This document shows positions 5,444 to 64,000 of a stretch of DNA of 64,000 nucleotides, piece after piece. Both the position numbers and the translations under genes were made by a program. A model generated the notes under the pieces. The model was not told the origin of the DNA. It searched no databases and was given only the letters and a program-made list of their open reading frames with translations. The stretch's first letter is position 1; each line of letters opens with the position of its first letter. The DNA is from Dictyostelium discoideum (lineage: Eukaryota): the NCBI GenBank assembly GCA_000004695.1, contig CM000151.3, positions 4,288,001 to 4,352,000 of the forward strand. The letters are read 5' to 3'.

Positions 5444-8245
5444 TATCTAATAATTTAATTTTTTTTTTTTTTTATTTTTTTTTTATTTTTTTTTTTACAG
5501 TCAATTTCAATTCATAATGAATTTAATACATTATTTAAAAATTATAAGAGTAAAACTATAAATTTACAAAAACAAAAAAAGATTATTAAAGATGCAGCAC
5601 AAGCATCAACTCAAGAAGCACCACGTAAACATGCAGAGAGAAGAGTTTATATTAGACAAGAATTGGAAGCAATGTGGAATTTGTTTAGAGATAAACCATG
5701 TTTATTGGCACCAAAGATTAATGTACTTTTAGCTGCTCTCTCCATGGCAAAGGAAGAGATTTTCTGGTATTTCCGTCATACTGATGTTATTCCACCAGAA
5801 AAAGTAAAGAAATTCTATAACAAACAAAATGAAGTTAGAGAAAAAAGAATTTCTTCTTTACTTTCATTAGTTGATCATTTAGTTCAATTAGTTCATACTC
5901 ATAAAAAAAGTAAGTTTTTTTTAAAAAAAAAAAAAAAAAAAAAATAGATAATATTATATTAAAAAAAAAAAAAAAAAAAAATTACTAATTTTTAAATTTT
6001 TTTTTTTAATTTTTTTTTTTTTTTTTAATTTTAATTTTAAAAAGTGATTCAAAATTATTATTTAGAATATATTTCAGGTGCAGATATTTTAGGTTTACAA
6101 AAAGTAATTACACCACAATTATTACAAAATGCAGGATCAATTGTTACACAAGCAGTTAATACAATTGTTAACGAATTGAAATCATTGAATGCCAATGGAC
6201 AAGATTATAGTTTTGAAGGATTTAGAGCAAATTGGATGAGATTAGGTTATTTATTACAATCAAATTCATGTCCATTGAAAGAGAGTGAATCAAAACAAAT
6301 CACCAGTCGTTTGAATTTAATTTATACACATAGTAAGAATGTTGATTGTTTGGATCAATTATTGGATGAATATGGCAATATGACTCAGTTGTGGTCATAC
6401 AAAGAACCATTGTTCCATTCATTCGATGCTGCCATTGTTGATATGACATGTGACCAACCATCACATTCAATGATCTATTTGAAATTGTTATCGCAATTCC
6501 CTAATCACGTCGCCAATCAATTCTATCCTGAAGAGAAGGAACTCATCGGTAAGGAGTGTGTAGAGTTGGCAAATAGTTGTCTCACCAAGATCACCAATCG
6601 TATCGTATCGATCATGGCAAACACTATCGCCTCTACTTTCCTCTCTGATGAGCAACAATTGGCCGATGTCAATGCAGCTTTCCCATTGTTGCAAAAGAAG
6701 AAGGATTGGAAACCACCAAAGGATTTCGTACCACCAATCGAACCTGCTAGTGAGTCACAATTTAGAAATAGAGCTAATCTCGAGCAACTTCGTTCCGAAG
6801 AGAAGAATGCATTCCAACTTTGCACTGCCTTGAATGAATTCTTGGACATTACAATCTATGATCACATTTTCGTACCAAGGGAATTCCTTCGTGAGAAATT
6901 GGGTTCTGCACTCAAGCAATATATGCGTCAATCAATTCAACCACCCGCTCCAACCTCTTCCTCCTCCCAAATCGATATCAATATCACTCGTCTCTCAACT
7001 TATGAATCTCAATTACGTGTTTTCATTGGTGTGTTGATTTTGGTAGAGAATCATGTTGACATTGATATCGGTGATCTCATTCGTGAGACTATCCTCACCG
7101 AATTTTACGCCAAGGCTTTGGGTAAGAGTGGTCGTGTCGATTGGTTCCCAGAGGGTGAAATTGAAATGAATGAATTAACGCTCCACTCCATCACAAGCTA
7201 CTATGTCGATTTGGTCTCTAAAAAACTCAATACTCCTGGTGTGGTTTTCTCTCCAGTTAAATTGGGTTTCATCTCAAAGGCTGGTACACCATTCCGTGCC
7301 GAGGAACATGCTGACCTCACTGAAATGAGAGCACTTTGTGATTTGGTTGGTCCATATGGTATCAAGGTCATCGAGAGGGAAATCCTTCGTTTCATTCTTA
7401 CCACTACCACCTCAATGAAAGAGATCCTCTCACTCAATGCTGCAAATCTTGAAGAGTTTGCATCAAATTATTACAAACCAAAAGCAATGGAACTTTTAAA
7501 GAAATTCAAAACTACAGATTTAGATCTCATTGTAACCAAATCCATCGCCATTGGTAATGCCCTTCATTTGAGATCAATGATTAGAGAATCCATGAAAGAC
7601 GTTATCACTGATAACTTCCCATATATTAATAATGCCGTTGCCAATGCTTTCGATCAATATAATCGTAACACATTTATGTTTCCAGACTTTTTAGGTGTTG
7701 ATACTTTGGCTTTGGATTCGGGTTTGAACGTTGGTATTGCCGATCAATACCTTAAAGTTATCCTTAGAAAGGTCTCCTCAGAGGCTGATAAAAGAATTTG
7801 GGAGTTATTACCTGTGATGTTCTCTCTCACATTCTATGGTAACATTTGGAAGGAAACTCAATACAAAGCTACCATCGACGCTCATTCAAATAATGTACAT
7901 GTATTATCAAAAACTATCATCGATTTACTCATAGCATTTGGTGCCATCAATTCAACCACTGGTAATGAGGCAGAGTTATTCCAATCATTTAAACGTTTCC
8001 TCGAAATTTCCTCTGTCAATATCTTACGTATGTTTAAGGGTAAACAAGGTGAAAAATTCGTTCCAAATGAAATTCAATCAGTTATCATCTTTTTAGATAA
8101 ATTCACTCAACAATGTCCATTATTATCAAAAGATTCACTCGAACAATACATTCCTTATTCACTCATCAGAAATATGTATAAAGATTTATATGAACATAAA
8201 AATCTTCAAAAACAACAATCTGAAACTTCTGAACAAAATTTCTAA
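4502..8245 (+). CDS. napA: Nck-associated protein 1 (Nap1/Hem-2 family), SCAR/WAVE complex subunit. join(4502..5374, 5501..5909, 6045..8245), 1160 aa.
   Basis: Three ORF-track segments (4502-5398, 5663-5947, 6044-8245) join through GTAAGT donors and ttacag / aaaag acceptors with consistent phase. The N-terminus (KFQVVIENGENILQRVYNTYKLFQNNKVKPSFF) matches the Nap1 N-terminal consensus. The total length of 1160 aa equals the known size of Dictyostelium NapA. Confidence 0.85.
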
Positions 8246-31854: not shown

Positions 31855-32460
31855 TTAATAAACAAATAAATAAAATCTAAAATTTAAAATATATATTATA
31901 ATTAAAAAAAAAAAAAAAAAAAAAAAAATACATACTTGGTCGGATTTTACTATATCTGATGGATTATTACTGTTATTATTATTATTATTATTATTATTAA
32001 TATTACTGCTATTATTACTATTATTGTTGTTGTTGTTGTTGTTATTATTATTATTATTGCCGATGTTGCTATTGTTATTATTATTACTACTGCTGTTGCT
32101 ACTGCCTGTGTTATTATTGTTATTGTTGTTATTGTTGCTGCCAATACTACCGCTATTATTGCTATTGCTATTGTTATTGTTGCTGCTGCTGCTGCTGCTG
32201 TTATTGTTATTATTATTATTTGAAGGACGGGGTTGTGAATTATTTGGTAACTTTATATTGGAATTTGATATATTTGGTCTGATAGAGTTATTATTAAATG
32301 GATATGACGGAGTTGTTCTATTTGAGCTATAACACATTTGAGGAACACCCTTTATAATACATCTTGAACAAGGTGTTTTCTCATCACATTCGACCATATC
32401 TTTTTGACAAAGAAAACATGATTTCTCTGATGTTTTTCTTTTTCTTGGATGTAAATCCAT
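29924..32460 (-). CDS. Putative transcription factor with Zn(II)2Cys6 binuclear-cluster, coiled-coil and PAS domains. complement(join(29924..31189, 31354..31788, 31936..32460)), about 741 aa.
   Basis: Exon A starts MDLHPRKRKTSEKSCFLCQKDMVECDEKTPCSRCIIKGVPQMC, with spacing C-x2-C-x6-C-x5-C-x2-C-x8-C (the Gal4-type pattern), followed by poly-N/S. Exon B has a heptad-like stretch LISELRELKDGQKKIYEELVNLRNRNEKLEIVNETLLAKLSML, a His-rich tract, then the start of a PAS fold (VVDLLKLPPIVINCSNSFCELLGYSQ) continuing in exon C (NELIGKPWTEITHPNLIEKTMNLFQQHRLDLSEKKSFELAQVYKHRDGSIFSTIDTHTIISDSDNTRAICDLVTI). Donors are GTATGT and GTAAGT and acceptors are ttttag / ttaattag; all phase 0. Confidence 0.6.
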
Positions 32461-32827
32461 TCTTTATTTATTTTTATATGAATTTTTTTTTTTTTTTTTT
32501 ATTGTAATATATATTTTATTTTATTTTTTATTTTATTTTATTTACTTATGTAATTTCTAATGCCTGATATTTTTAAAAAACAAATAAAATGAAAAAAATA
32601 AAAAAAATAAAAAATTCAACAAAAAAAAAAAAAAAAAAAAAAAAATGAATGAAATAATTTTTTTTTTTTTTTTTAATTTTTAATTTTTTTTTATTTTATT
32701 TAATTTAATTATTAAGAAAATACAAATTTGTATTATCTTGATTTGATAAATATTATTACTTTTTTTTTGTATTTTTAAAATTTTTTTCATTTTTTTTTTT
32801 TTTTTTTTTTTTTCGTTTTTTCACAGT

Positions 32828-34705
32828 TTAATTATTAATTGGTAAATAACCAGCACGTTTCTTATAACGAATATAACCATATGCTCCACCAGCAACAGTA
32901 CCCAAGACAGCAACGATAATTAAGAAAACAGCCCAACCTGGTAATTTCTTATGAGATTGTTCTTTTGAATTAAATTTAATTGAGACAATACCATCATCAG
33001 AGACGGAAACAGAGTAATCTAAAGTGGTGGCTTGACCATTTGTAAGTGGAACGATGGTTGAGAAAGTACCAAGAGTGCTACCAGCACATGAGATGATTTT
33101 ATAGGAATCACCATCACTTGGATTGGTATCGGTGATATCCATGATAAGGGTACCATTGAGTACTAAATTACCGTCGACAGTGATAAGAGCGCCAGCATCG
33201 GTAGAGAGTGTCTCTGCGATGAAAATGGTGGATTCAGCATCCATTTCCAAGTTACCAGCAACAGCGAATTGTTCAGAGGTTTGATCCATATCCAAAACGG
33301 CACCACTTGTCATAATTAAATCACCATTGATAGTAGCGATGGATTGTGGATGAATTCTACCGGCGATCAAATCAACTGAGCCACCAATGATACCACTATC
33401 AATACCAATGTATGAGTCTTTATCCAATGTATCGATTGAACCAAAAAAATTGACTTGATTGAATGCAAGATTACCTAAAAGATTAATTGGATATTTTCGA
33501 ACCCAAGAATCGAATGGACCATTCAAAGTGTTCATTGAGGCATCACTGAAAACGATTTGAGTGAGATTGGTGGAGATGTAACCCAATGAATTGCCACCAT
33601 CAAATTGAACGCTTGGAGTTGGTTGATGGTCTGGATTGATTACAAATGATGATTGTTTATCAGTTAAATGACCAAATGTACAATTTTGAACAAATAGATT
33701 CAAACCACCTGCAACAGTTACACTAATACCCACTGAATTAACATTCCATAAATAACATTCGGATTCAACATTACCTTGCTTGTTGATGTCAAATGTGATT
33801 TGACCATTACCTTGGACACCATTTGCGAAGTTTCCTTTTGGATGGAAACAAATTAAGTTGGCATTTTGTAAGTTAATGCTTGGGAAGTTTGCTGATGCTG
33901 AACCAGAGATGGTGAGATTAGCATTGGTGACCTTGATACTTGGATTACCAGTGTATTTGAATGAATCTGCAATGGTAAGAGCACCACCTTGAACGATGAT
34001 ATCATCATTGAGTGTGACAATCTCCAAATTGGATTGACCATAGAATGTGGTTGGACCAACAATGACTCTATCGTCGGAATTGATACCTGCATTGAAGAAA
34101 CATTCGTTGGCAGTTAAAATTGAATTATCAGTGAATGTTACAGTGGTCCAAAATTGAGCGACACCATTGATTAAAACATTTGAGAATGATTGTGCAGAGA
34201 ATTGGGAGTTTTGATCAGTGAAAATATCTTTAAATTGAAGAATTGAATAGGATGCTTGCATTGTGGATCCGAAAAGTAAGAATTTACCATTAACCTCAAC
34301 ATCATAACCAAATTGAGTGATATTGTTACTCTTTTCATTGTCAAATACAATTGTTGCACTATTGTTACCTGTGAACCCACCTGTCACTTGCATGTTGGTG
34401 TTTTGGAATGATACTACAACATTGACTGCACTTGTACCAACGATATTAATACTTGTGAATATGTTATTGATACCAGAAGCTACAATGAAAACTTGTTTAT
34501 TAGCGTTGGTAACCTTGGTGAAATCAATTACAACATTACTATTATTACTTGGAACTGCTCCTTGTTGCCAATTTGTTGGATCTGTGAATCTACATGGATT
34601 TTCTTGTGCACCACATAATGTTGGATCAAATGCAAAATTAAATGTTTGTGCTGAAATAATTCCAATAAAACAAATTAAAACTAATAATAATTTTATAATA
34701 TTCAT
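32828..34705 (-). CDS. Type I membrane glycoprotein of unknown function, 625 aa: signal peptide, large N/T/S/G/V-rich beta-rich ectodomain, single C-terminal TM, short basic cytoplasmic tail.
   Basis: A complete ORF. The N-terminal MNIIKLLLVLICFIGIISAQT is a likely signal peptide. There are many N-x-S/T sequons. The C-terminal WAVFLIIVAVLGTVAGGAYGYI is a TM segment followed by RYKKRAGYLPINN. No recognised catalytic motif. Confidence 0.6.
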   Translation of the reverse strand: MNIIKLLLVLICFIGIISAQTFNFAFDPTLCGAQENPCRFTDPTNWQQGAVPSNNSNVVIDFTKVTNANKQVFIVASGINNIFTSINIVGTSAVNVVVSFQNTNMQVTGGFTGNNSATIVFDNEKSNNITQFGYDVEVNGKFLLFGSTMQASYSILQFKDIFTDQNSQFSAQSFSNVLINGVAQFWTTVTFTDNSILTANECFFNAGINSDDRVIVGPTTFYGQSNLEIVTLNDDIIVQGGALTIADSFKYTGNPSIKVTNANLTISGSASANFPSINLQNANLICFHPKGNFANGVQGNGQITFDINKQGNVESECYLWNVNSVGISVTVAGGLNLFVQNCTFGHLTDKQSSFVINPDHQPTPSVQFDGGNSLGYISTNLTQIVFSDASMNTLNGPFDSWVRKYPINLLGNLAFNQVNFFGSIDTLDKDSYIGIDSGIIGGSVDLIAGRIHPQSIATINGDLIMTSGAVLDMDQTSEQFAVAGNLEMDAESTIFIAETLSTDAGALITVDGNLVLNGTLIMDITDTNPSDGDSYKIISCAGSTLGTFSTIVPLTNGQATTLDYSVSVSDDGIVSIKFNSKEQSHKKLPGWAVFLIIVAVLGTVAGGAYGYIRYKKRAGYLPINN

Positions 34706-36544: not shown

Positions 36545-37835
36545 ATGTCAAGCACACCAAATAATAATAATAATAATAAGTAAGTATATTTCATGTTAAA
36601 AAAAAAAAAAAAAAAAAAAATAAATAAGTAAAATAATAAAAACTCATATTAATCTTTTTTTTTCTTCTCACCAAAATTTATTTATTTTATTATTTAAATA
36701 GGGCAGAAAATCAAGCCGATTTCGTAGATGAAGAAGAATGGGCATTTGTAGATCTATGGGATAAATATGATCAAAATCTTTTAGAGAGATTTTGGAATGA
36801 ATTAGTTAAAACAACTTTTAACACTTCAGATATTCAGCCATTGAACGATTGGAATAAAGCAATGTCACCAGAGGCTCATAATAATCCTGATATTCCAGAT
36901 TTACACATATTATTAGCTTTTAAAGCAAGTGATTTGGAAACAATTAAAAATTCAACAGAGGCATTTACAACTACAAATACCTCACCAAGAAATACTTCCA
37001 CAGGTGATAGCAATACAAATACATTTAATACTGGTGGTAGCGGTAGTAGTGGCAATAGTACAACAAATACAACCCCTACTACACCAATTATAGTTACAAC
37101 ATCAAATAGTATTAATATACCAACTAAATTAACCTCATCAACAAGTAGTACATTGATACCAACAGCTATACCAGTTGCAACTCCAACAACTCCAACAACT
37201 CCAACAACAACAGCAACCCCAGCAATTCCAACAACAACAACAACAACACCAAAATCACCAATTTCAGATGACTTGGAATTGTCATCATCATCTTCTTCAA
37301 CTATGAGTAGTATTGATTCAAATTCAACATCATCATCAGCTGTAATTAGTCCAACACCAATTCCATTCATCAATACAAGCACAAACATTTCATCATCACC
37401 ATCTTCAACAATTGTTAGTACTCTAGGTAAAGTAACACCACCACAGATTTTAAATAATCGTACTCAAATTATTGCTGGTGTAATTTTTGAATATTATTCA
37501 AATATTAATTGTGGTTTATTTTTACATATGATTATTCAAAAAAAATTTAGAAATATGGTAAGTAAAAATTTAAATAATTTTTTTGTTGTTTTTTTTTTTT
37601 TTTTTAAAATAAATATTAAATTTTTTTTTAATTTATTACTATTATTTTTAGGGATTAGAAGGATTATTAGTTAAAAGAGCAATTGAAATTTTAGATAAGA
37701 ATGCACATTCTCATGGTCATTTAGCAGGTTGTAATGCAATTTTCTTTGAAACTAAATCAGCATCAAATCCAGCTGGTACCAGTACCAGTACCAGCACCAG
37801 TACTAGTACTAGTACTAATTCTAGTGGTAGTAGTA

Positions 37836-37934
<99 letters not shown>

Positions 37935-40900
37935 GTAATAATAATACTTTATGTGTATCTACAAGTGGTGGAAGTAGTCATCAAGATATTAATAAAATTG
38001 ATCCAAGACAACAACATTCAATTTTACATAAGATTGGATTTAGATTAGTAGATTTTGATTATACAAAACTACCATTAAAGAGATTAGGTAAATCAAATAA
38101 TCTCCTATTGACAGTTTATCTTTCGCCACATATACCATCACAAAGTAGTTTAGATGGTGATAAATATTATTTACCATCAGTATTATTAAAGAATTTCGTA
38201 TATGACCTTTGGGATACATCTTATTTGACAGAAAAAGTTAATAGAAAACCAGATGAAGATCCAGAATATGGAAGAGCATTGGAACAAATCGAATTACGTG
38301 AAAAGATACCATTGTTAGATTTACCATGGGGTGCAGGTAAACCATGGACATTAGTTGACCTCTATGAGGATTATGATGAAGAATTATTGGAACGTTGTTA
38401 TAGAGAAGTCATGGTACCAAGTGTGAAACATAGTGAAATTCCTTCACTTGGTAACGTTTTAAGGGCAATGTCTCCCGAGGGTGATGATTCATCCTATCTA
38501 CCAGATGTTCATGTCCTTTTAGCAGTACGTTGGCCAACTGATTTCCATAAGGATGGCAATTCATCATCGCCAATCATCGATGGTCTTTGTGTTTTCGAAT
38601 ATCATACCGAACAAAATTGTGGAATACTCACTCATTTAATTTTACAAAAAAAGAATAGAACATCATTGAATGATGGTTTGGATAGTTTATTAGTGGATAG
38701 TGCCGTAGATATCCTTGATACCAATGCAAGAGAACGTGGTAATTTGGCAGGTTGTAATGCAATTTTCATTCATATTAAAAATGCCCCAACTTCACCAGTT
38801 AGTCCAGATGTTGTTGATATTTGTCAACATCATATGGTATTATATAAAATGGGATTCAAACTTTTAGACTTTGATTTCTATATACCACCATTGGATTTTC
38901 ATTCAGCACCAAAGAAAATGATGTTAGGTTTATTCATTACACCATTGATCCCAAAATCAAATGAAAAAGGTGATCGTCCATTCATTCCATCAAATCTATT
39001 GAAATTATTTGTTGAACTTCAATGGAATAATGCTTTTGGTTCAGAACAAATTAAGAATTCACCAAATACCTACTTGGAATATCAACGTATGATTGAACAA
39101 ATAGAATTACGTGAACGTATTTCATTATCGGATTTACCATGGGATGCAGGTAAACCATGGACATTGGTTGATCTATGGGAAGATTATGATCAAGAGTTAT
39201 TGGAACGTCTATACAAAGAGATTATGATACCAAACTTTTCAAATAAACACGAATTGGAACCATTGGATAATTGGTTACAAGCATTTACTTCAGAGAATCG
39301 TGATGATCCAAACATTTCCGATCTTCATATACTATTGGCACTTAGATGGAGCGATAATAGTTCACAACCAATCATTGAGGGTGTTATCATCTTTGAATAT
39401 TTCTCTGCAAATAATTGTGGTCTATTAACTTATTTAATCGTTCAAAAAACATTTAAAGGTAAAGGTTTGGATAGAATCCTCGTGGAAACAGCAATTGAAA
39501 TCCTAAATCAAAATGCAAAGAGTCAAGGTTTCCTTCCAGGTTGTAATGCAATCTTTTTGGAGGTTTACAGTGGTGAAAAGGTAACTTTGAAACAAGATGT
39601 AGTCGATCCACGTATGAGACATTCCATCTATCATCAAATTGGATTTAGATTGATAGATTTCGAATATGTTGCACCACCATTAGCTTTGACTTATCCAAAG
39701 TTAAAACATTTCCTTCTCACAGTTTATCTTACCGAACATATTCCAAAGATGCCATTGGAGGAGGGCAAATATTATTTACCAAGTAGCGTTTTAAAGAATT
39801 TTATCACCGTCCTTTGGAAGAATGCAATTGCAACCAAGAAAATCATTAAACAACCACAAAGAGATTCAGATTATGTTAGAATGGTCGAACAGTTTGAGTA
39901 TCGTGAAAAAATACCATTGTTAGATTTACCATGGGGTGCAAGTAAACCATGGACATTGGTTGATCTTAGAGACGATTATGATGAGGATCTTATGGTACGT
40001 TTTTACAATGAGTTGATGTTACCAAATTTCCCAGTGAAAAATGAATTGGAACCATTATCAAATTTCATTAGTGCTCTCTCTGAAGAGAGAAGAGAATCAT
40101 TCAATCCACATTTATCAGAGGTTCATGTTTTATTGGCATTGAGATGGCCAACCGATTCATCCGATTTACAACCAACCATTGGTGCTGGTATTATTTTCGA
40201 ATATTTTTCAAATACCAATTGTGGTTTACTTTCCTATTTGGTGGTACATCGTTCTTCAAGAGGTCAAGGTTTGGCTGGTATTTTGGTTGAACGTGCAGTG
40301 GAACTATTGGATAAACATGCAAAAACTCGTGGTCAATTGGCTGGTTGTAACTGTATTTTCTTGGAAACCAATTCTGCTGAAAAAGTAACCGTACAACAAG
40401 ATGTTATGGATCCACGTATGAGACATACTATCTATTATAAAATGGGTTTCAGAATGATCGATTTCGAATATATTATGCCACCACTTTTTCAAGGTTTTGA
40501 AAAATTACGTGGTGTACTCTTATTGACAGTTTATTTAACTCCTCATATTCCCTATCAAGATGTCAATGGCAAGAAACAATACTATCTACCAAATGTTTTA
40601 TTAAAGAATTTCATCTCTTCACAATGGGAGAATGCATTCCGTAATTCACGTCTCTCTGTTAGACCAAGTCAAGATATCGATTTCACAATGTCATTGGATC
40701 AATTGGAGATTAGAGAACGTGTACCACTATTGGATTTACCATGGGGTGATGGTAAAGATTGGATGATAGTTGACCTTTGGGAAGATTATGATCAAGAGTT
40801 ATTGGATGCTTTCTATAAAAAGTATATGATCACTCAGTTTGGTACTTCCGATGAATTAGAACCATTAGAGAATTGGCATAAAGCTCTCTCAACCGAGGGT

Positions 40901-42064
40901 CGTGATGATCCTAATATTTGCGATCTTCATGTCCTATTAACATTGGGTTTGCCAGGTGAACATAAAGGTAAAGGTCATAAATATATCATTGGTGGTTTGG
41001 TTTTCGAATATTATCCAGAGACAAATACAGCATTGGTCACTTACTTGGTTGTAAATCAACGTTGGTCCGGTAAAGGTATTGGTACTGACTTAATTTTACG
41101 TACTCTCACAATTCTCGATCAAAATGCAAAACAAAAAGGTCATATAGCCGGTTGTAATGCAATTTTCTTGGAAGTTATGTTCTTACCACAATCGGGTGAA
41201 TCAGACTCTTCATTGAGTCATGTTTTCCTTTTCAATAAAGGTTTCCGTTTATTGGATTTCGAATATTATCAACCACCAACCTCTTTAAGAAATCCAAAAT
41301 CAAATAATGTTTGTTTAACCGTTCTATTGACTCCACGTATTCCAAAGCATGGTGTTGGTAGTGAAATTCAACCATTTGTACCATCTTCTTTGTTACGTTC
41401 ATTCATTACAACTCTATGGGAAGATGAATGTGGTTTAATTGGTTATAACTTTGAATCTGATCCATGTTACCTTAGAATGATGGAACAATTGGATGGTAAT
41501 GATTATTTCCATTGTTTAGATTTACCTTGGATTAAACATAGAATCGATCAAAATTCAATCAATCCAAATAATTCCACTCTACCACATATAAACTTTTCAA
41601 ATTCTTTTAATAATTTAAATATTAGTTATTCATCACCAAATCCTGTACATTTAAGAGATTTTAAAAATCAACAACAACAACAACAACAACAACAAGTACA
41701 ACAATTACAACAACAAGTACAAAAAGTACAACAATTGACAGCTGGTACTAATTTAGGTGGTAATAGTTTAAATTCAAGTGGTAGTATTTATAATAATAGC
41801 GGCGATAAAAAATCATCACTACCACCATTACCAAATCCAAATAACCTTAGTAATAATTATGATAGTGATCATCTTACAAAGAATAAAAATTTATTAAAAG
41901 TTTCAACACCAGATGGCAATAGTTCCTCTGCTCCTGGTTCACCAATTTTATCTCCTCAATCAATGAATTCAGTTTTCCCACCAAACGCTCCTTTATCACC
42001 TGCTCTTTATCCTTCAAATTTAAGTAATTCAACATTGGCCCAAAGAGTTACATTGGATAAATAA
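36545..42064 (+). CDS. Giant protein with 5 complete plus 1 partial tandem GNAT-fold (acyl-CoA N-acyltransferase-like) modules. join(36545..36579, 36702..37557, 37652..42064), 1767 aa.
   Basis: ORFs 36841-37674 and 38108-42064 are joined by a GTAAGT...tttttag intron (phase 0), and a short first exon MSSTPNNNNNNK joins via aa|gtaagt...aaatag|g. Each module of about 260 aa carries DLPWG(A/D)GKPWTLVDL(W/Y)EDYD(E/Q)ELLER, then EPL.NW, DPNI.DLH(I/V)LLALRW, IIEGxIIFEY(F/Y)...NCGLLTYL(I/V)V, then an R/Q-x-x-G-x-G/A motif-A region (SRGQGLAGILVERAVELL; SGKGIGTDLILRTL), then GCNAIFLE...DPRMRH.IY.KMGFR.IDFEY..PPL and LLTVYL.PHIP. This matches GNAT beta4-alpha3 (motif A), motif B (Y.K.GF) and the terminal beta strands. 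There are long S/T/P-rich and poly-N (37846-37930) insertions in module 0 and a Q/N/S-rich C-terminal tail. Confidence 0.7.
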
Positions 42065-42519: not shown

Positions 42520-44238
42520 TTTTAATTTTAAATGTAAAAGTTAAGAAACTAACAAAACAATTAAAAATTTATATATAGTTCAGATGCAGGTGAAGCATTA
42601 TTCTTATCAAACTATTTAGATGACCACAAAACCGCAAAACAGAAATCTTGTGTTGATATTGGTGCACCTTTTCAATCATGTGATAAATTATTAGAGATTG
42701 ACTCTAACCTCAGAGATACAGAAGATTTCTTTACATTCACTGGTTTCATCACTGTAAATGAAACTTATAATAGTAATACTTTCTTTTGGTTTTTAGAATC
42801 TCAAAATGGTGATAAAAACTCACCCTTAGTTATCTTTTTACAAGGTGGTAAGTATTTTTATTTTTATTTTTATTTTTATTTTAAAAACAATTTAAAATGT
42901 ATATTAATATTATTTATTTATATTTATTTATATAAAAAAAAAAAAAATATAAAATAGGTCCAGGTGGTGCATCAACTTTTTCACTTTTTGTTGAAACAGG
43001 TCCATATGAACTCCTTGATAATTTCACTTTAGTACAAAGAGAAATTACATGGAATTCAGAATTTGCAATGTTATATATTGATAATCCAGTTGGTACTGGT
43101 TTTTCATTTACTGACTCTCAAGAGGGTTATTCAAATAATGAAGATGAAATTGCAACAAATTTATACACCTTTTTACAACAATTTTATAAACTTTATCCAG
43201 AATATTACACAAATGAATTATATATAACTGGTGAAGTAAGTACAAATCAAATATTTAACATTTTAATTCAATTTTAATACTAATTTTATAAAATAATAAT
43301 AAATAATAAATAATAAATAATAAATAATAAATAATAATTATTTAGAGTTATGCCGGAAAATACATTCCAGCATTTTCATATCACATTATCCAACAAAACC
43401 AAAACTCAAATAATCCAAATATTAATCTTAAAGGTATTGCAATTGGTGACGGTTTATGTGATCCAATTACCCAAGTAACTCAATATGCAAACCTTGCATT
43501 CTATACTGGTTTAGCTGATCTCCAACAACAAGAAGTTATGTTTGAATATCAAGATAAAATTGTTGAAGCAATTAATCAAGAACAATGGTCAGTTGCAAAC
43601 GATTTATTCACTGATTTAATTAATGGTCCACCAGATTATTTCCAAGTAAATATATAGTTTTTTTTATTTCCTATTCTTATATAAATGATTAATTAGTTTT
43701 TTTTTTTTCTTTTTTTTTTTTTTAAAATAAGAATATTACAGGTGAATCAGATTATTATGATATTCGTAAAACTGTTGAACCAACATATGGTGGTGATTTT
43801 ACAGCATTTTTAAATCAATCTTCAATTCGTGCAATGATTCATGTTGGTAATAATTATTTTCAAAATAATAATGATGTTTACATTCATTTAGAACAAGATA
43901 TTCCAAAATCAGTTAAACAATTATTCCCAACCATTTTAGATAATATTAAAGTTATTTTATACAATGGTCAATTTGATTTCATTGTTGGTCCATCTCTCAC
44001 AGAAACAATGATTCGTACTATTGAATGGGAAGGAATTCAACCATTCTTAGAATCACCAAAAATCATTTGGAAAATTCCATCAGATAATGTTGATGTAGCC
44101 GGTTTTGTTAGACAATGGAATAGTTTCACTCAAGTTGTTGTACGTCAAGCAGGTCATATGGTACCTTTGGATCAACCTGCACGTGCTTTTGATATGATAG
44201 ATAGATTTATTAACAATGAACCTTTTCCATCAGGTTAA
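42307..44238 (+). CDS. Serine carboxypeptidase (peptidase S10 family), secreted. join(42307..42455, 42579..42847, 42958..43235, 43346..43645, 43741..44238), about 497 aa. The last acceptor could alternatively be at 43732.
   Basis: Signal peptide MKVSLSFLLTILIVIITIKVNLS. S10 motifs: PLVIFLQGGPGGAS across intron 2, LYIDNPVGTGFSF, the catalytic-Ser motif ITGE|SYAGKYIP across intron 3, and the catalytic-His region VVRQAGHMVPLDQP. Four introns with GTAAGT/GTAAAT donors; all phases close. Confidence 0.85.
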
Positions 44239-44351: not shown

Positions 44352-45848
44352 TTATAATTCAACAAATCCAATATTTGATGGCTTTGATTCTATACCATTA
44401 TAACTTGTAACAACAATACTATATTTTCCATAAGGTATATTAAACATTTTTGTTATGAATTCTGAATTAATTGATCGTTTAATTTTATATCTTAACCATG
44501 TATTATCTGATCTACTGATATAAACAAAGTATTTGATTTTTTGATTACTTTTTTCACTTTTAAAGGAATTTGATTTAAAAGTGATTGATACATCCATATT
44601 AAAATAATATTGTTTTTCAATTGTACAATTGATAATTTGAGGTGGTAATAATTGTTCAAGTTGATTGGTAAATGATAAATTATAAGTTAAGGAGTAATTT
44701 CCATAATCAAGATTATGGTTTTCAACAATAATATAAACATGTTTACCATTTGCTGTCATTCTTAATTGCCTATTATCATTTGATCTATCAATAATAGTGG
44801 TTAAACTTTGACCATATCTAATATTACAACTTCTCATTGAACTATATTTATAATAATTATAAGCTTTTCTTGATTCTAATAAACATATTGAATAGGTGAA
44901 TGGCATAACTCTATTAGCTATTGGATTTATTGACATTGTAATTTCCGTATTACCCTTAACATCACAAGAATATTGATGATATTGATTAAAATTATTATTA
45001 TTAAAACCATTATCTTTTTTAAAATTACAATAATTATTACAAGGTGAATAATCATCATTTCTTAAAAATTCTAAATATGAGTCTAAAAAGTGTAATTGGT
45101 TTATTGATTTAATTTTTTCAATATTATTTTTCAAATAAATTGTATTGTTAATTGAATGTTTAAAAATTGTATTTGAAACGTATGGGTCTGTTATTCTAAT
45201 AGTATCATTATAATATGAATTTACATATCTACGGTAGGTAAATTTATTTATGTTTTGTTTAACATAATCTAAAAATTTATCATCACCAATTGCAGGTTGG
45301 CCAAATGTTACACATGTAATTGATTTTATATATTTTTCATTAAAACGTTGAATTGAGATATCTAAAGTTGCAAAAAATGCAATTACACCGCCAACTGAAT
45401 GACCAGTAAAATAGATATCATAGGGTTTCTCACATGAATCAATAATGCTATATAATTGAATATATAAATCATAATATTCACCTTGAAAACCATTACGAAC
45501 TTCACCACATCCTTTTGGATCAATATAACAATCAACTTTGAAATAATGGGCATTATCTTCGATATTAATTGAATTGTATTCTTTAAATGAAATTATTAAA
45601 TTATTGGTAATGGATGATTTATATGCTAAAATCTTAGAATTATCCAATACAACCTCCCATTCCAAACAATTGTTTTTATCACCTAAAGAAATAAATTGAT
45701 TTTGTTTAACTGCTAATGGATCATATATTAAATCTGAAAAGTATGCAAAAATATAATCTCCATTTTTACCAATTATTGAACTATTTGATCTTTTAAGATT
45801 TATTAATAAATTTATTATCAATATAAAAACTATTGTTTTAAAAAACAT
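44352..45848 (-). CDS. Secreted class-3 (fungal-type) lipase-like protein with C-terminal Cys-rich region and FN3-like domain, tandem paralog 1 (498 aa).
   Basis: Signal peptide MFFKTIVFILIINLLINL. The Lipase_3 nucleophile elbow is YFTGHSVGGVIAFFATL (GHSxG), followed by CVTFGQPAIGD. The C-terminal tail is YSIVVTSYNGIESKPSNIGFVEL. Intronless. Confidence 0.8.
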   Translation of the reverse strand: MFFKTIVFILIINLLINLKRSNSSIIGKNGDYIFAYFSDLIYDPLAVKQNQFISLGDKNNCLEWEVVLDNSKILAYKSSITNNLIISFKEYNSINIEDNAHYFKVDCYIDPKGCGEVRNGFQGEYYDLYIQLYSIIDSCEKPYDIYFTGHSVGGVIAFFATLDISIQRFNEKYIKSITCVTFGQPAIGDDKFLDYVKQNINKFTYRRYVNSYYNDTIRITDPYVSNTIFKHSINNTIYLKNNIEKIKSINQLHFLDSYLEFLRNDDYSPCNNYCNFKKDNGFNNNNFNQYHQYSCDVKGNTEITMSINPIANRVMPFTYSICLLESRKAYNYYKYSSMRSCNIRYGQSLTTIIDRSNDNRQLRMTANGKHVYIIVENHNLDYGNYSLTYNLSFTNQLEQLLPPQIINCTIEKQYYFNMDVSITFKSNSFKSEKSNQKIKYFVYISRSDNTWLRYKIKRSINSEFITKMFNIPYGKYSIVVTSYNGIESKPSNIGFVEL

Positions 45849-46241
45849 TGTTTATTGACAATTAAAATAACACTTGGGTTTTTTTTTAATTTTATATTTT
45901 GTGTGGTTGTGTGTGTTTATATATTAATTAAAAATAAAAATTAAATAAAATTCTCTGTAAATATCCCTATCAATATTAATTATACAAAATTTTAAATCAG
46001 AAAATCTAAATTTAGATCTTAATTACATTTCTTTTTTAATTAAAAATAATAATTAATGAAAATAAAAAAATAAAAATTTCATCATTTAATTTATTAATAT
46101 TAAGTAATCTTTTAAGTGGTGTTTTTAGAAAATTTAATTAAAAGATTTTTAGTAATTTACTAAATTATCTATTATTTTATTTATTTAAAAATTAATGATT
46201 CAGATTAGTTGTTAAATCATTTTTTTCTTTATAATTATAAT

Positions 46242-47810
46242 TTATTTCAGAGTATTTATAAATGCAATATTGGAGGGTGAAGATTGGATATCATTATATT
46301 CTGAAAAAACAACTATACTATATGCTCCTTTTGGGATATCATCTATAGTTTTTGAAAAGTAATTATTATTTTGGTGTGGTCGAATAATTGTCTCTTTATA
46401 TTTTTTCCAGTTTTGCCCAATATTACTAATGAATATATTATATATTGTATTATTAAAATTGTTGTTATTATTATTATGATCTAAATCATTGATACTAAAA
46501 TTAACTTGTAATTTAATAAGATCGTTTTTTATTTCTAAAATATCAGCTGTTAAATTTGTTGGTGGATTTGGAGTTTGATATGGGCTCTTTATTGAAATAT
46601 TATAAGAAAATGAGGATGTCCCTAAAATTGAGTTATGGTTTTCAACTACAACAATAATTTCATTTAAATTTTTAATTCTTTTTGAAACTGATCTAAAATG
46701 TTCTGTCTTATCTACCATTGTTATTGGTTGTTTATAATCTTTATAGTAATTTAAATTACAACTACTAAATAATGTAAAATCATAGTGTTTAAATTGATTC
46801 CTTGATGTAAATAAACATACAGAGTATTTATCAGGTAGAATACCTTTTGGATTAAATTCACCATTGAAAATACATTCATTTTTAACCATACAATGATATT
46901 CTTTAAATTTTGAAAATTTTGCATTCTTTTCAACAAATTTACAATTAGTATTACATTGTGAATAATTTGGATTAAATGTATTTAATAGGTAAAGATCTGA
47001 TGAATGTAAACCCAATGGAAAATTGGGACAACTGTGTTTTTTACAATTTAAAACAATTATTGATTCATCTGCGACCTTTGGATGATAAACATTAAATATT
47101 GACATTATTTCAACAACAGGATCTTCATGATACTTTTTAAAATCAGATGAACGATGTTTATGATTATTAATATTAACGTATCTTCTATAATTTATTTTTT
47201 TAATTGATGATAAAAACAATTTATTAAATTGTTCATCTCCTACTGCAGGCTGACCAAATGTTATACAATTAATAGATTCAATGTTTTTTAAATCATTTTG
47301 ATAAGAATAATATACTGAAGCTAATAATGCAACAGCACCACCAGCCGAATGACCAGTAAAATAAATATCATATGGTTGGTCTAATGATTTTATTATTGAT
47401 AACATTGTATTTTGATTAAAATAAAATTGATCTTGAAAACCAAAATGAATTTTACCACATTCAATATTCCATGGTTTTAATAAAAAACAAGAAATTAATT
47501 TTAAATCAATATCAGATGCAAAATCTTTAAAATAATGAGTTCCTTGAATTGAAATAACCAAGTTATTCGTATATTTTGATTTAAAAATCATCATTTTATT
47601 TTCATTTACAATTATTTCCCATTCTTCACATTCACCATTAATTTTTATTAATTCAAATTTTGAAAATTCTTTATTATTTGTTTTATATACTAAATTTGAA
47701 AAGTAAGCAAATATATGATCTCCATCTTTATTTATTTTTGAAGATAAAATTAAATTTATAAAAATTAATTTAAATAATATAATTATTAAAAATTTTATTT
47801 TAAAAAACAT
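46242..47810 (-). CDS. Secreted class-3 lipase-like protein, tandem paralog 2 (522 aa).
   Basis: Signal peptide. YFTGHSAGGAVALLASV, CITFGQPAVGDEQF, and a C-terminal FN3-like YSIVVFSEYNDIQSSPSNIAFI. Confidence 0.8.
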   Translation of the reverse strand: MFFKIKFLIIILFKLIFINLILSSKINKDGDHIFAYFSNLVYKTNNKEFSKFELIKINGECEEWEIIVNENKMMIFKSKYTNNLVISIQGTHYFKDFASDIDLKLISCFLLKPWNIECGKIHFGFQDQFYFNQNTMLSIIKSLDQPYDIYFTGHSAGGAVALLASVYYSYQNDLKNIESINCITFGQPAVGDEQFNKLFLSSIKKINYRRYVNINNHKHRSSDFKKYHEDPVVEIMSIFNVYHPKVADESIIVLNCKKHSCPNFPLGLHSSDLYLLNTFNPNYSQCNTNCKFVEKNAKFSKFKEYHCMVKNECIFNGEFNPKGILPDKYSVCLFTSRNQFKHYDFTLFSSCNLNYYKDYKQPITMVDKTEHFRSVSKRIKNLNEIIVVVENHNSILGTSSFSYNISIKSPYQTPNPPTNLTADILEIKNDLIKLQVNFSINDLDHNNNNNNFNNTIYNIFISNIGQNWKKYKETIIRPHQNNNYFSKTIDDIPKGAYSIVVFSEYNDIQSSPSNIAFINTLK

Positions 47811-61114: not shown

Positions 61115-63925
61115 AGACAATAGAACAAGAACAACAACAAATAACAGAGGTGAATAGTGAATATTATATAGATGAAAATGGTAATTATCAATATTATGAA
61201 GAAAGTTATTATAGTAGCGAACAAACTGAAAGTTATGACCTACAACAAGAACAAGAGCAACAAAATTATGATGAACAATATTACCAACAACAAGAAGAGA
61301 AACAACAACAACAACAAGAACAACAACAACAACAAGAACAACAACAACAACAAGAACAACAACAACAACCACAACCACCACCACCAACAACAATTCCCTC
61401 AACTATAGGAGATTTAAAAAATTTTGGAGAGGAAGAATTATTTTATAACTCATTATCTCATAGAAGTAAATGTGTATTGGAAGTTTATACAACAGAGAAA
61501 TCATTTTCACAACATTTAAATCATTTTATTTCAGTATGTATTTTTTATAATTTTAATATAAATATAAATATATATAATAATATATAAAAATATATATTAA
61601 TTTTTAAAAATAATTTTTTTTTTTTTTTTTTTTAGTTTTATTTAGATGGTATTAGAAATTCTAATCCACCAATATTAGATAGTTTTGGTATTTTAGAAAT
61701 ATTTTCAAATATAGAATCAATTAAAGATTTTAGTGAAGAGTTAATTAAAGATATGAAAAAGAAATTTGAAGATGGATCAGAGGATGTTGCAACACCATTC
61801 ATATTAAAAGAGAAACAAGTTAGAGAATTATATATACCATATGCAACTAATCATGCTAATCTAGTTGAAGGATTGAGTAAAATGATTGAAAAGCGACCAA
61901 TGTTAGCACAATTTTTACAACAAGTTAAAGAGAATCCATTGAATAAATCGAAATTGGATTTACCTTCATTTTTAATTATGCCAGTTCAACGTATGGTTAG
62001 ATATCAAATGTTATTCAATGAGATATTGAAACATACTGAAAAGGAGCATACAGATTATCAAAGATTAGAAGAGGCAACTCAAATGTCAATGTTAATCACT
62101 AGAACTATAAATGAACAAATTAGGAGACACCAAAATCTATTAAAAGTTCAAGAGATTCAATCCAATTTAATAGGTGGTCCAAAGATCATCAAAGAGAATA
62201 GAGTATTCGTTAGAGAGGGTGGTTTAATGAAAGTTTGTAGAAAAGAGGATAAATTTAGATGGTTTTTCTTATTTTCTGATGCTTTAATGTATTGTACTTC
62301 AACAAATTTACAACAAAATATTATTAACGATGCAGGTGGTGGTGGTAGTGGTGGTAGTGGTAGTGGTGGTGGTGGTGGTGGTGGCAATAATGATTTACCA
62401 AAATTTCAACCATTACCAAATACATCAAATCATTCATTCACATTTCATAGATTAATGTTATTATCAGATATTAATAAAATTAGGGATGTAAAAGATAGAG
62501 ATAATCAAAAGAATGCATTTCAAATAGTTTCTTCCTCTGAGAAATCATTTACAGTTTATGCTGAAACTCAAAAGGAGAAACTCAATTGGTTAAATGATTT
62601 TAAAGAGTTATTAGTCGATAAGAATAGAGTTGTTCAAGAATCAAGTGATATCACCAATAGTCAATTGAATGCTGATGAAGTACCAGTTTGGATACCCGAT
62701 AAAGAAGCAACTAAATGTATGTTTTGTAATGATGGTTTCACAATTATCAATAGAAGACATCATTGTAGAAATTGTGGTAAAGTAGTTTGTGGTAGTTGTA
62801 GTCCTCATAAACGTTTAATTCCTCATATTAAAAAGAATAAACCAGTTAGAGTTTGTTTATTTTGTTATGATTATATTGGTTTAAATGAAAAAGAATCACA
62901 AAATCATAATCAACAATCTTCTTCCTCTTCCTCTTCCTCTTCCTCTCTTCATATAAATGGTGCTCAAAGAAGTCATTTAGATATTTTAAATTCAATCATT
63001 GGTGATAGAAAAAGAACTCTATCATTTAGTAGTTTATATGGTGATGGTAGTATTGAATCAAATTCAACACAACCTTACAATTTAACTTTTAATAATAATA
63101 ATAATAATGGTGGTAGTAATGGTAGTGGTAGTGGTTCAAATCTTAATATTAATAATATTAATAATAATATACCAAATTCTTCAGCAGGTTTATCAAATAA
63201 AGAACATTATAGTACATTTAGAAAATTAAAGAATAAGATTTCAAAGGATTCATCCTCTTCTTCTTCAAGTATTACAATTACAAAAGAAAAGGATAGAGAT
63301 TTTTCAAGATCTCAATCAGATTTAAATTTAACAGGTGGTGGAAACAGTGGTAGTGGTAGTGGTAGTGGTGGATCAACACCAACCGGAAGACCACCATTAG
63401 TAGTTAGAGGTGGTATTCCATTACCAACTACCCAAAGTCATGGTAATTTAAGACCAATGTTACCAATAAATTCTGTTATTTTAAAACCATCAAACAATAA
63501 TAATAATAATGATCAACCTAAATTTCAATCACCCGAATTTCCTCAATCAAAACTTTCAAAAACTTCACCTCAATCATCGAGTAATAATTTAAATTTAATA
63601 ACTAAATCAAATAAACCACCTCTATCACCACCAACTCCACCACATCATAATCATCCTTTGCCACAAACTCCACCACATCATAATCATCCTTTGCCACCAA
63701 CACCACCACAACATCCTTTGCCACCACCACCACCACAACATCCTTTGCCACCAATCCCTCAGTCTCATACTCCACCTCAACACTCTTTGCCATCAGTCCC
63801 TCAATCCCATACTCCACCATCACCATCACAACAACACCCATTAATTATGCAAACTAAAAAAGTTACAAGATCAACTTCACAACCACCATTACCTGAACAA
63901 ACACATTCCTCAACTACTTTACAAC

Positions 63926-64000
<75 letters not shown>
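61111..64000 (+). CDS. FGD-like Rho guanine-nucleotide exchange factor: DH (RhoGEF) + PH + FYVE zinc finger. join(61111..61533, 61636..>64000); 3' end truncated by the window end.
   Basis: Exon 1 has a Q-rich N-terminus and the start of the DH domain (EELFYNSLSHRSKCVLEVYTTEKSFSQHLNHFIS). Exon 2 has the DH core LPSFLIMPVQRMVRYQMLFNEILKHT, a PH-like region REGGLMKVCRKEDKFRWFFLFSDALMYC...FQIVSSSEKSFTVYAETQKEKLNWL, and a FYVE domain WIPDKEATKCMFCNDGFTIINRRHHCRNCGKVVCGSCS...VRVCLFCYDY (the R(R/K)HHCRxCG motif). Donor is tca|gtatgt and acceptor is ttttag|ttttat, phase 0. It continues as a poly-Ser (TCA)n to the window edge. Confidence 0.8.
63925..64000 (+). repeat. (TCA)n coding microsatellite (poly-Ser) at the window edge, within the RhoGEF gene.
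   Basis: Perfect tca repeats, in frame. Confidence 0.85.

Follow-up and report, generated by a model that had tools for sequence, protein, structure and literature searches.

The window analysed here is a stretch of 64,000 nucleotides of Dictyostelium discoideum (contig CM000151.3, positions 4,288,001 to 4,352,000, forward strand), and its positions 36545 to 42064 hold a gene with a predicted product of 1767 amino acids (aa), composed of five tandem modules similar to the GNAT acetyltransferases. The layout is unusual, yet no recent duplication lies behind it, and the family to which the modules belong is uncharacterised. Judged from the sequences, the five copies stem from old duplications and each position has since been conserved as an entity of its own. 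Module 4 (M4) is canonical, modules 3 and 5 (M3 and M5) are intermediate, and modules 1 and 2 (M1 and M2), most clearly M2, are without some residues that are invariant in the family. On balance, we incline to the view that the protein is an array of acetyl-CoA-dependent amine, probably polyamine, N-acetyltransferases in which M4 would be the core catalyst, and we infer the substrate from its relatives.

Gene Structure

A preliminary description of this DNA had proposed one spliced gene with a first exon of 12 codons. The splice model agrees with it: the three joined exons give 5304 nt with a single terminal stop, and both introns run from GTAAGT to AG.

36545–36579 (+): exon 1, ATG with 11 codons and 2 nt (MSSTPNNNNNNK), from the splice model, with the GTAAGT donor at 36580
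36580–36701 (+): intron 1, GTAAGT...AG, strongly AT-rich
36702–37557 (+): exon 2, start of module 1 with its S/T/P-rich loop insert; its frame is continuous with the open reading frame (ORF) 36841–37674
37558–37651 (+): intron 2, GTAAGT...AG, which cuts module 1 within motif A (RNM|GLE)
37652–42064 (+): exon 3, the remaining module 1, modules 2–5 and the low-complexity tail; stop at 42062–42064

On its reading frame and its orthologues, the window protein is taken to be one polypeptide. The frame of exon 3 is not a chance product, since this exon on its own keeps 4413 nt open at 20–34% GC in a genome of ~20% GC. P0010, a five-module protein of 1518 aa from a EukProt dataset, is the orthologue of the window protein. 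It is uninterrupted at the second splice junction (FRNM|GLE), where it reads FRNMGLERLLVKK (FRNMGLERLL), and its N-terminus, M-S-polyN, matches the product of exon 1. Together with P0011, a 1980-aa five-module protein called from a contig, and P0013, a transcript-derived ORF covering three modules, it supports a multi-module single chain independently of the window. Five separate genes were rejected, as there are no starts or stops between the modules and the orthologues are continuous.

Two mechanically called ORFs overlap the gene, i.e., 36876–37388 (-) of 170 aa and 37734–38048 (+) of 104 aa. They were rejected as genes, being by-products of the CAA/ACA and AAT coding repeats. The N-terminus of the product reads as hydrophilic, in line with the absence of a signal peptide noted at first, and an exact-sequence look-up of the 1767-aa product gave no match in the collection searched. 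The GC content of the window (~16–37%), the long poly-N/Q/T coding tracts and the short AT-rich introns are typical of a dictyostelid genome.

The Five-Module Array

Five units result both from self-alignment of the protein and from a module profile, in agreement with the tandem array of a ~260-aa module described earlier. The modules and the low-complexity parts are distributed as follows.

36703–38317 (+): module 1, aa 13–519, spans intron 2; complete but divergent
36934–37452 (+): S/T/P-rich insert, aa 90–262, in module 1, loop beta2-beta3
37769–37975 (+): S/T and poly-N insert with (AAT)n, aa 337–405, in module 1, loop beta5-alpha4
38318–39130 (+): module 2, aa 520–790; the most derived
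39131–39922 (+): module 3, aa 791–1054
39923–40729 (+): module 4, aa 1055–1323; canonical
40730–41530 (+): module 5, aa 1324–1586, with the closing DLPW element, aa 1587–1590
41531–42061 (+): Q/N/S/P-rich low-complexity C-terminal tail, aa 1591–1767; ends in TLDK and carries no type 1 peroxisomal targeting signal (PTS1)

Both inserts and the tail had been recognised in the preliminary description, and its motifs (LHILLALRW, IIFEYF, NCGLLTYLIV, LVERAVELLDKHA, GCNAIFLE, YKMGF, and LLTVYLTPHIP) were likewise all found. The beta5-alpha4 loop, which is the site of the poly-N insert in module 1, is the loop of lowest confidence in the structure model of M4.

At the DNA level, a repeat search recovered the conserved boxes in exactly five copies with a spacing of 789–816 nt. 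Tandem Repeats Finder reported microsatellites only, the period of ~800 nt being too diverged for this program, and no further copies of the module were found elsewhere in the window.

The count of five complete modules and one partial module given at first has to be corrected to exactly five. Past module 5 the array ends in LDLPWIKHRI only. The IPLLDLPW element also terminates single- and multi-module relatives (...DLPWDTQSKL in P0083 and ...ELPWVISTESKL in P0012). In both structure models (M4 and M3-M4), its first residues, IPLL, form a predicted beta-strand of moderate confidence. The element therefore closes module 5 rather than opening a sixth, and the partial sixth module was rejected on this ground and on the five copies of the box.

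Age of the Duplications

Between the modules of the window protein, identity over whole modules is 36–55% in protein and 54–63% in nucleotides, and third-position identity at identical residues is 59–69%. The N-terminal boxes, for which a high nucleotide identity had been noted, do show 71–88% over 75 nt and reach 93% in boxes of 45–75 nt. This is an effect of the conserved peptide and of the AT-biased codon use. On the contrary, modules of the same number in the window protein and P0010 are 81–91% identical. In the neighbour-joining tree of the three proteins, which includes modules 1, 2, 4, and 5 of P0011, the modules cluster by position.

Arrays of this kind were also found outside the dictyostelid-type proteins. 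In detail, two metagenomic eukaryotic contigs of 43–44% GC (L003 and L004) carry exactly five modules each with flanking sequence on both sides, and their fourth and fifth modules match best M4 and M5, respectively. Contigs L002 and L005 have four modules or more. Relatives with four or five modules exist in other eukaryotic microbes.

The positional grouping of P0010 and P0011 and the five-module arrays of L003 and L004 indicate that the array is old and conserved by position, and homogenisation is refuted. The origin first suggested, internal duplication in recent times or continuing homogenisation by gene conversion, could draw on the 71–93% identity of the 45–75 nt boxes between modules, but whole modules are far less similar than that, the same-position modules of other species are far closer, and the five-module arrays occur in genomes of quite different GC (43–44% against ~20%), so that positional orthology leaves this origin practically no probability.

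Assignment to the GNAT Fold

The modules are classed as GNAT acetyltransferase-like on their profile matches. Against Pfam Acetyltransf_1 (PF00583; gathering cut-off 20.7), the long ORF reaches 51 bits. Of the modules scanned in isolation, M4 passes (22.8 bits), M5 and M3 fall just below (19.7 and 17.5 bits), and M1 and M2 give no Pfam hit. No curated family or solved structure proved nearer to the module than GNATs in general. The GNAT alpha/beta fold, i.e., a mixed sheet with the beta4-alpha3 CoA-binding element, is present in the predicted structures, and PaiA is among the top Foldseek matches. The AlphaFold2 model of M4 has a predicted local distance difference test score (pLDDT) of 78, and the M3-M4 di-module model has a pLDDT of 81 and a predicted template modelling score of 0.63. 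The GNAT identity proposed from the letters alone is upheld by the profile scores and the predicted fold.

In each module the GNAT core takes up ~140–170 residues. Because just 140–168 of 269 residues align, ~100 residues per module are specific to the family. These are an N-terminal strand with helices (W-x-x-VDL...DYD..LL..FY) and a C-terminal helix pair closed by the IPLLDLPW element.

The Modules Are Unequal

Canonicity was scored with 85 single-module relatives, on 50 positions that they conserve. The share kept is 82% in M4, 68% in M3, 66% in M5 and 50% in M2, with an average of 77% for the single-module proteins. M4 is also the window module closest to all 85 relatives, in every class (34% identity vs 25% for M2).

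Motif A (Q/R-x-x-G-x-G/A) differs between the modules. RGQGLA of M4 fits it, SGKGIG of M5, KGKGLD of M3 and RNMGLE of M1 are partial, and in LNDGLD of M2 the Arg is lost. M3 and M5 retain the motif-A glycines, E93, E148, and Y105, and M5 has YYQPP. M2 shows the substitutions E148 to H, R167 to H, and Y105 to H, its losses including the near-invariant Glu of "ETN". Several of these losses are common to M1, where Y105 is replaced by H, R167 by Q, and QP by KL.

The same motif-A variants and substitutions are carried by P0010. The module cores of the two proteins are highly conserved, for instance, 83% in M1, 81% in M2 and 91% in M5, whereas the inserts and the tail are only 1–25% conserved (S/T/P insert 21%, poly-N insert 1%, tail ~25%). 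This difference argues that the divergent modules too are maintained, and the comparison places all five modules under purifying selection.

Distribution of the Family

A profile search against 1.84 billion representative sequences (E ≤ 1e-3) yielded 1344 representatives of the family, the majority being single-module proteins (~250 aa) of eukaryotic microbes. The named sources are protist datasets of EukProt, e.g., Diphylleia rotans. Among the 159 family proteins examined, 18 have about 1.5 or more modules.

A PTS1-like tripeptide ends 21 of the 159 members and five of the 11 oxidase fusions described below. C-termini of the form [SA]KL alone were observed in 18 of the 159 against 0.08 expected (P~1e-36). 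Carriers of PTS1-like tails include P0012, P0017, P0018, P0020, P0041, P0058, P0059, P0067, P0074, P0076–78, P0083, P0094, P0103, P0112, P0114, and P0132, and such tails are also found on two- and four-module members. The five-module dictyostelid-type proteins have a low-complexity tail with a TLDK or LIDK end.

In nine of the 20 long single-module members, a flavin Amino_oxidase domain follows at the C-terminus. The fusions, each with one N-terminal module, are P0059, P0064, P0070, P0076, P0093, P0094, P0100, P0112, P0133, P0143, and P0152. Over its whole length, the fused oxidase can be aligned with spermine oxidase (4e-47); maize PAO and APAO are further matches.

One single-module member, P0043 (256 aa), is located inside a bacterial-looking nuo operon (L007, 3156–3926; L008, 2736–3506), in the order NuoA, NuoB, NuoC, an unknown 531-aa protein, the GNAT, NuoD, NuoE, and NuoF. 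It is about equidistant (33–38%) from all eukaryotic members and may represent a transfer between eukaryotes and bacteria. A scan of GTDB genomes with P0043 as query gave no confirmed close relative.

Proposed Function and Alternatives

M4, and probably M3 and M5, would use motif A to bind acetyl-CoA or a different acyl-CoA, whose acyl group these modules would then pass to a primary amine. For M1 and M2, an altered specificity or a non-catalytic role in binding or regulation is probable. The acceptor would most likely be an amine of the polyamine type, as suggested by relatives that are often peroxisome-targeted and repeatedly fused to flavin amine oxidases of the PAO/SMOX type. In polyamine back-conversion, an N-acetyltransferase acts first and is followed by a peroxisomal acetylpolyamine oxidase, and the fusions and the PTS1 tails match this logic of acetylation and then oxidation. 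The association with PTS1 and oxidases belongs to the family and not to the window protein, since the latter, P0010, and P0011 carry neither, and extending the polyamine reading to the window protein, which is probably cytosolic, goes a step beyond the family data.

A number of observations count against the proposed function. The lack of both PTS1 and oxidase domain in the three five-module proteins is the first. Furthermore, a PDB sequence search with a single module returned only noise (E > 1), and with the family profile the best match, GNA1, was not significant (E 0.019). The structure models were built on shallow alignments (6 and 11 sequences). In the module alignments, only M3 and M4 show the Tyr that canonically stands four residues ahead of the motif-B GF in GNATs, and the family does not conserve it. 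No named homologue was obtained. A word-indexed search with a family alignment gave generic names only, and in NCBIfam four modules and three single-module relatives showed nothing near the cut-offs. Finally, the fused oxidase scores slightly better against the core of the histone demethylase LSD1 (3e-53, in two pieces) than against spermine oxidase, and other fusion partners exist, namely a PH domain (P0028) and cofilin/ADF (P0102), in one case each.

A broader statement can be made only tentatively, being less likely than not. It holds that the module defines an unrecognised, widespread acetyltransferase family, ancestrally peroxisomal, which would serve PAO-type oxidases as acetylating partner in the catabolism of polyamines. 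In amoebozoan-like lineages it would have become a fixed array of five positions with a canonical, catalytic M4 and four specialised modules, each differing in acceptor specificity or having a regulatory role.

The resemblance to LSD1 and the fusions to the actin-binding cofilin/ADF domain and to the PH domain speak for modules that are N-terminal or lysine acetyltransferases of proteins, with the array providing several specificities or multi-site modification. We regard this as possible though rather doubtful: a Pfam scan of the oxidase fusions gave no SWIRM domain (E ≤ 1e-3 and 1e-4), the alignment to spermine oxidase is a single colinear stretch, and the PTS1 tails on five of the 11 fusions point to peroxisomes and not to chromatin.

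An array that is largely a scaffold of pseudo-enzymes seems unlikely. At most M4 would then be catalytic, and the other modules would be CoA/acyl-CoA-binding, ligand-binding or structural units, comparable to the inactive domain that some double GNATs have. Such a role would fit with M4 alone passing the Pfam cut-off singly, with M1, M2, M3, and M5 each lacking some family-invariant residues, with the retention of these losses in P0010, and with the strong conservation of all modules nonetheless. Yet the residues kept by M3 and M5 include the motif-A glycines, E93, E148, and Y105, and their scores are just under the cut-off. Moreover, the catalytic residues of GNATs vary between families, and loss of activity cannot be established from sequence alone.

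Cleavage of a polyprotein precursor at the short, highly conserved IPLLDLPWG linkers into five enzymes of the single-module form, which is the commonest in the family, is very improbable, because the IPLL of the linker is a predicted strand (moderate confidence) in both models and the same element ends single-module proteins, so that folding explains its conservation.

Significance

A chain of five modules, in which each position has long been kept, is a natural experiment on duplicated enzyme domains that specialise or become pseudo-enzymes. If the five-position reading is true, the protein would be the first natural case in which more than two GNAT modules are arrayed and differ in function by position. 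For ~1300 uncharacterised proteins of eukaryotic microbes, and at least one of bacteria, the PTS1 tails and oxidase fusions provide a testable hypothesis of substrate. For lineages in which no acetylating enzyme of polyamine back-conversion has been assigned, these features may point to that step. The host is a genetically tractable dictyostelid, in which knockouts and module swaps are feasible.

Other Features of the Window

Just downstream of the GNAT gene, at 43068–44238 (+), ORF fragments look, from their translations, like a gene of the serine carboxypeptidase (S10) type that is split by introns (LYIDNPVGTGFSF and VRQAGHMVPLDQP). They are followed by two adjacent paralogous ORFs, at 44352–45848 (-) and 46242–47810 (-), of 498 and 522 aa, respectively. 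Their translations show N-terminal hydrophobic leaders and a lipase-type serine motif, GHS(V/A)GG, and the pair (44352–47810) looks like tandem genes for secreted class-3-lipase-like proteins.

The GC content peaks at 6001–8000, 32001–34000, and 62001–64000 (0.31–0.37 vs a background of ~0.20), presumably because of long exons. The second of these peaks coincides with an ORF of 625 aa at 32828–34705 (-), whose N-terminus is signal-like and which has a hydrophobic segment at the C-terminal end.

Comparison with Known GNAT Systems

With few exceptions, GNAT enzymes have one such domain or a pair of them. In the literature searched, no array of more than two GNATs was found, the term "tandem GNAT" denoting two-domain proteins, and nothing relevant was retrieved on Dictyostelium GNAT arrays or on fusions of GNATs with polyamine oxidases. 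The rarity claimed for the array in the preliminary description holds in that more than two GNAT modules are unusual; it does not extend to this organism being the only one to have them.

Compared with single-domain GNATs of the PF00583 type (Naa50, RimI, and PaiA), the window modules are each ~100 residues longer and are placed five per chain. Their sequence identity to solved GNATs is 9–19%, and the module has no match to a specific Pfam subfamily or to NCBIfam.

The likeness to the pair formed by SSAT (SAT1), or PaiA/SpeG, with PAOX consists in the PAO/SMOX fusions and the PTS1 tails of the family. The module has no specific sequence relationship to SSAT, SpeG, or PaiA, and the window protein is without PTS1 or oxidase. 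Membership in a polyamine N-acetyltransferase family was not indicated by any specific match to SSAT/SAT1, SpeG, or PaiA in Pfam or NCBIfam; PaiA, SpeG, and SSAT2 match the general GNAT fold only, with 11–17% identity.

A parallel in architecture is given by the double GNATs, i.e., clavulanate ORF14 (2wpx), Legionella VipF, NAT16/HisAT, MshD, and N-myristoyltransferase, which likewise have more than one GNAT domain and unequal conservation of the acetyl-CoA motif. In MshD, only one domain is catalytic. The two domains of these proteins are packed as one compact unit, whereas the window protein has five full modules. Superposition of the M3-M4 model on ORF14 and VipF over both domains gave root mean square deviations of 17–23 A and TM scores of 0.14–0.39. 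In the model, the relative orientation of which is moderately confident, the arrangement between modules thus appears unlike that of the compact two-domain GNATs.

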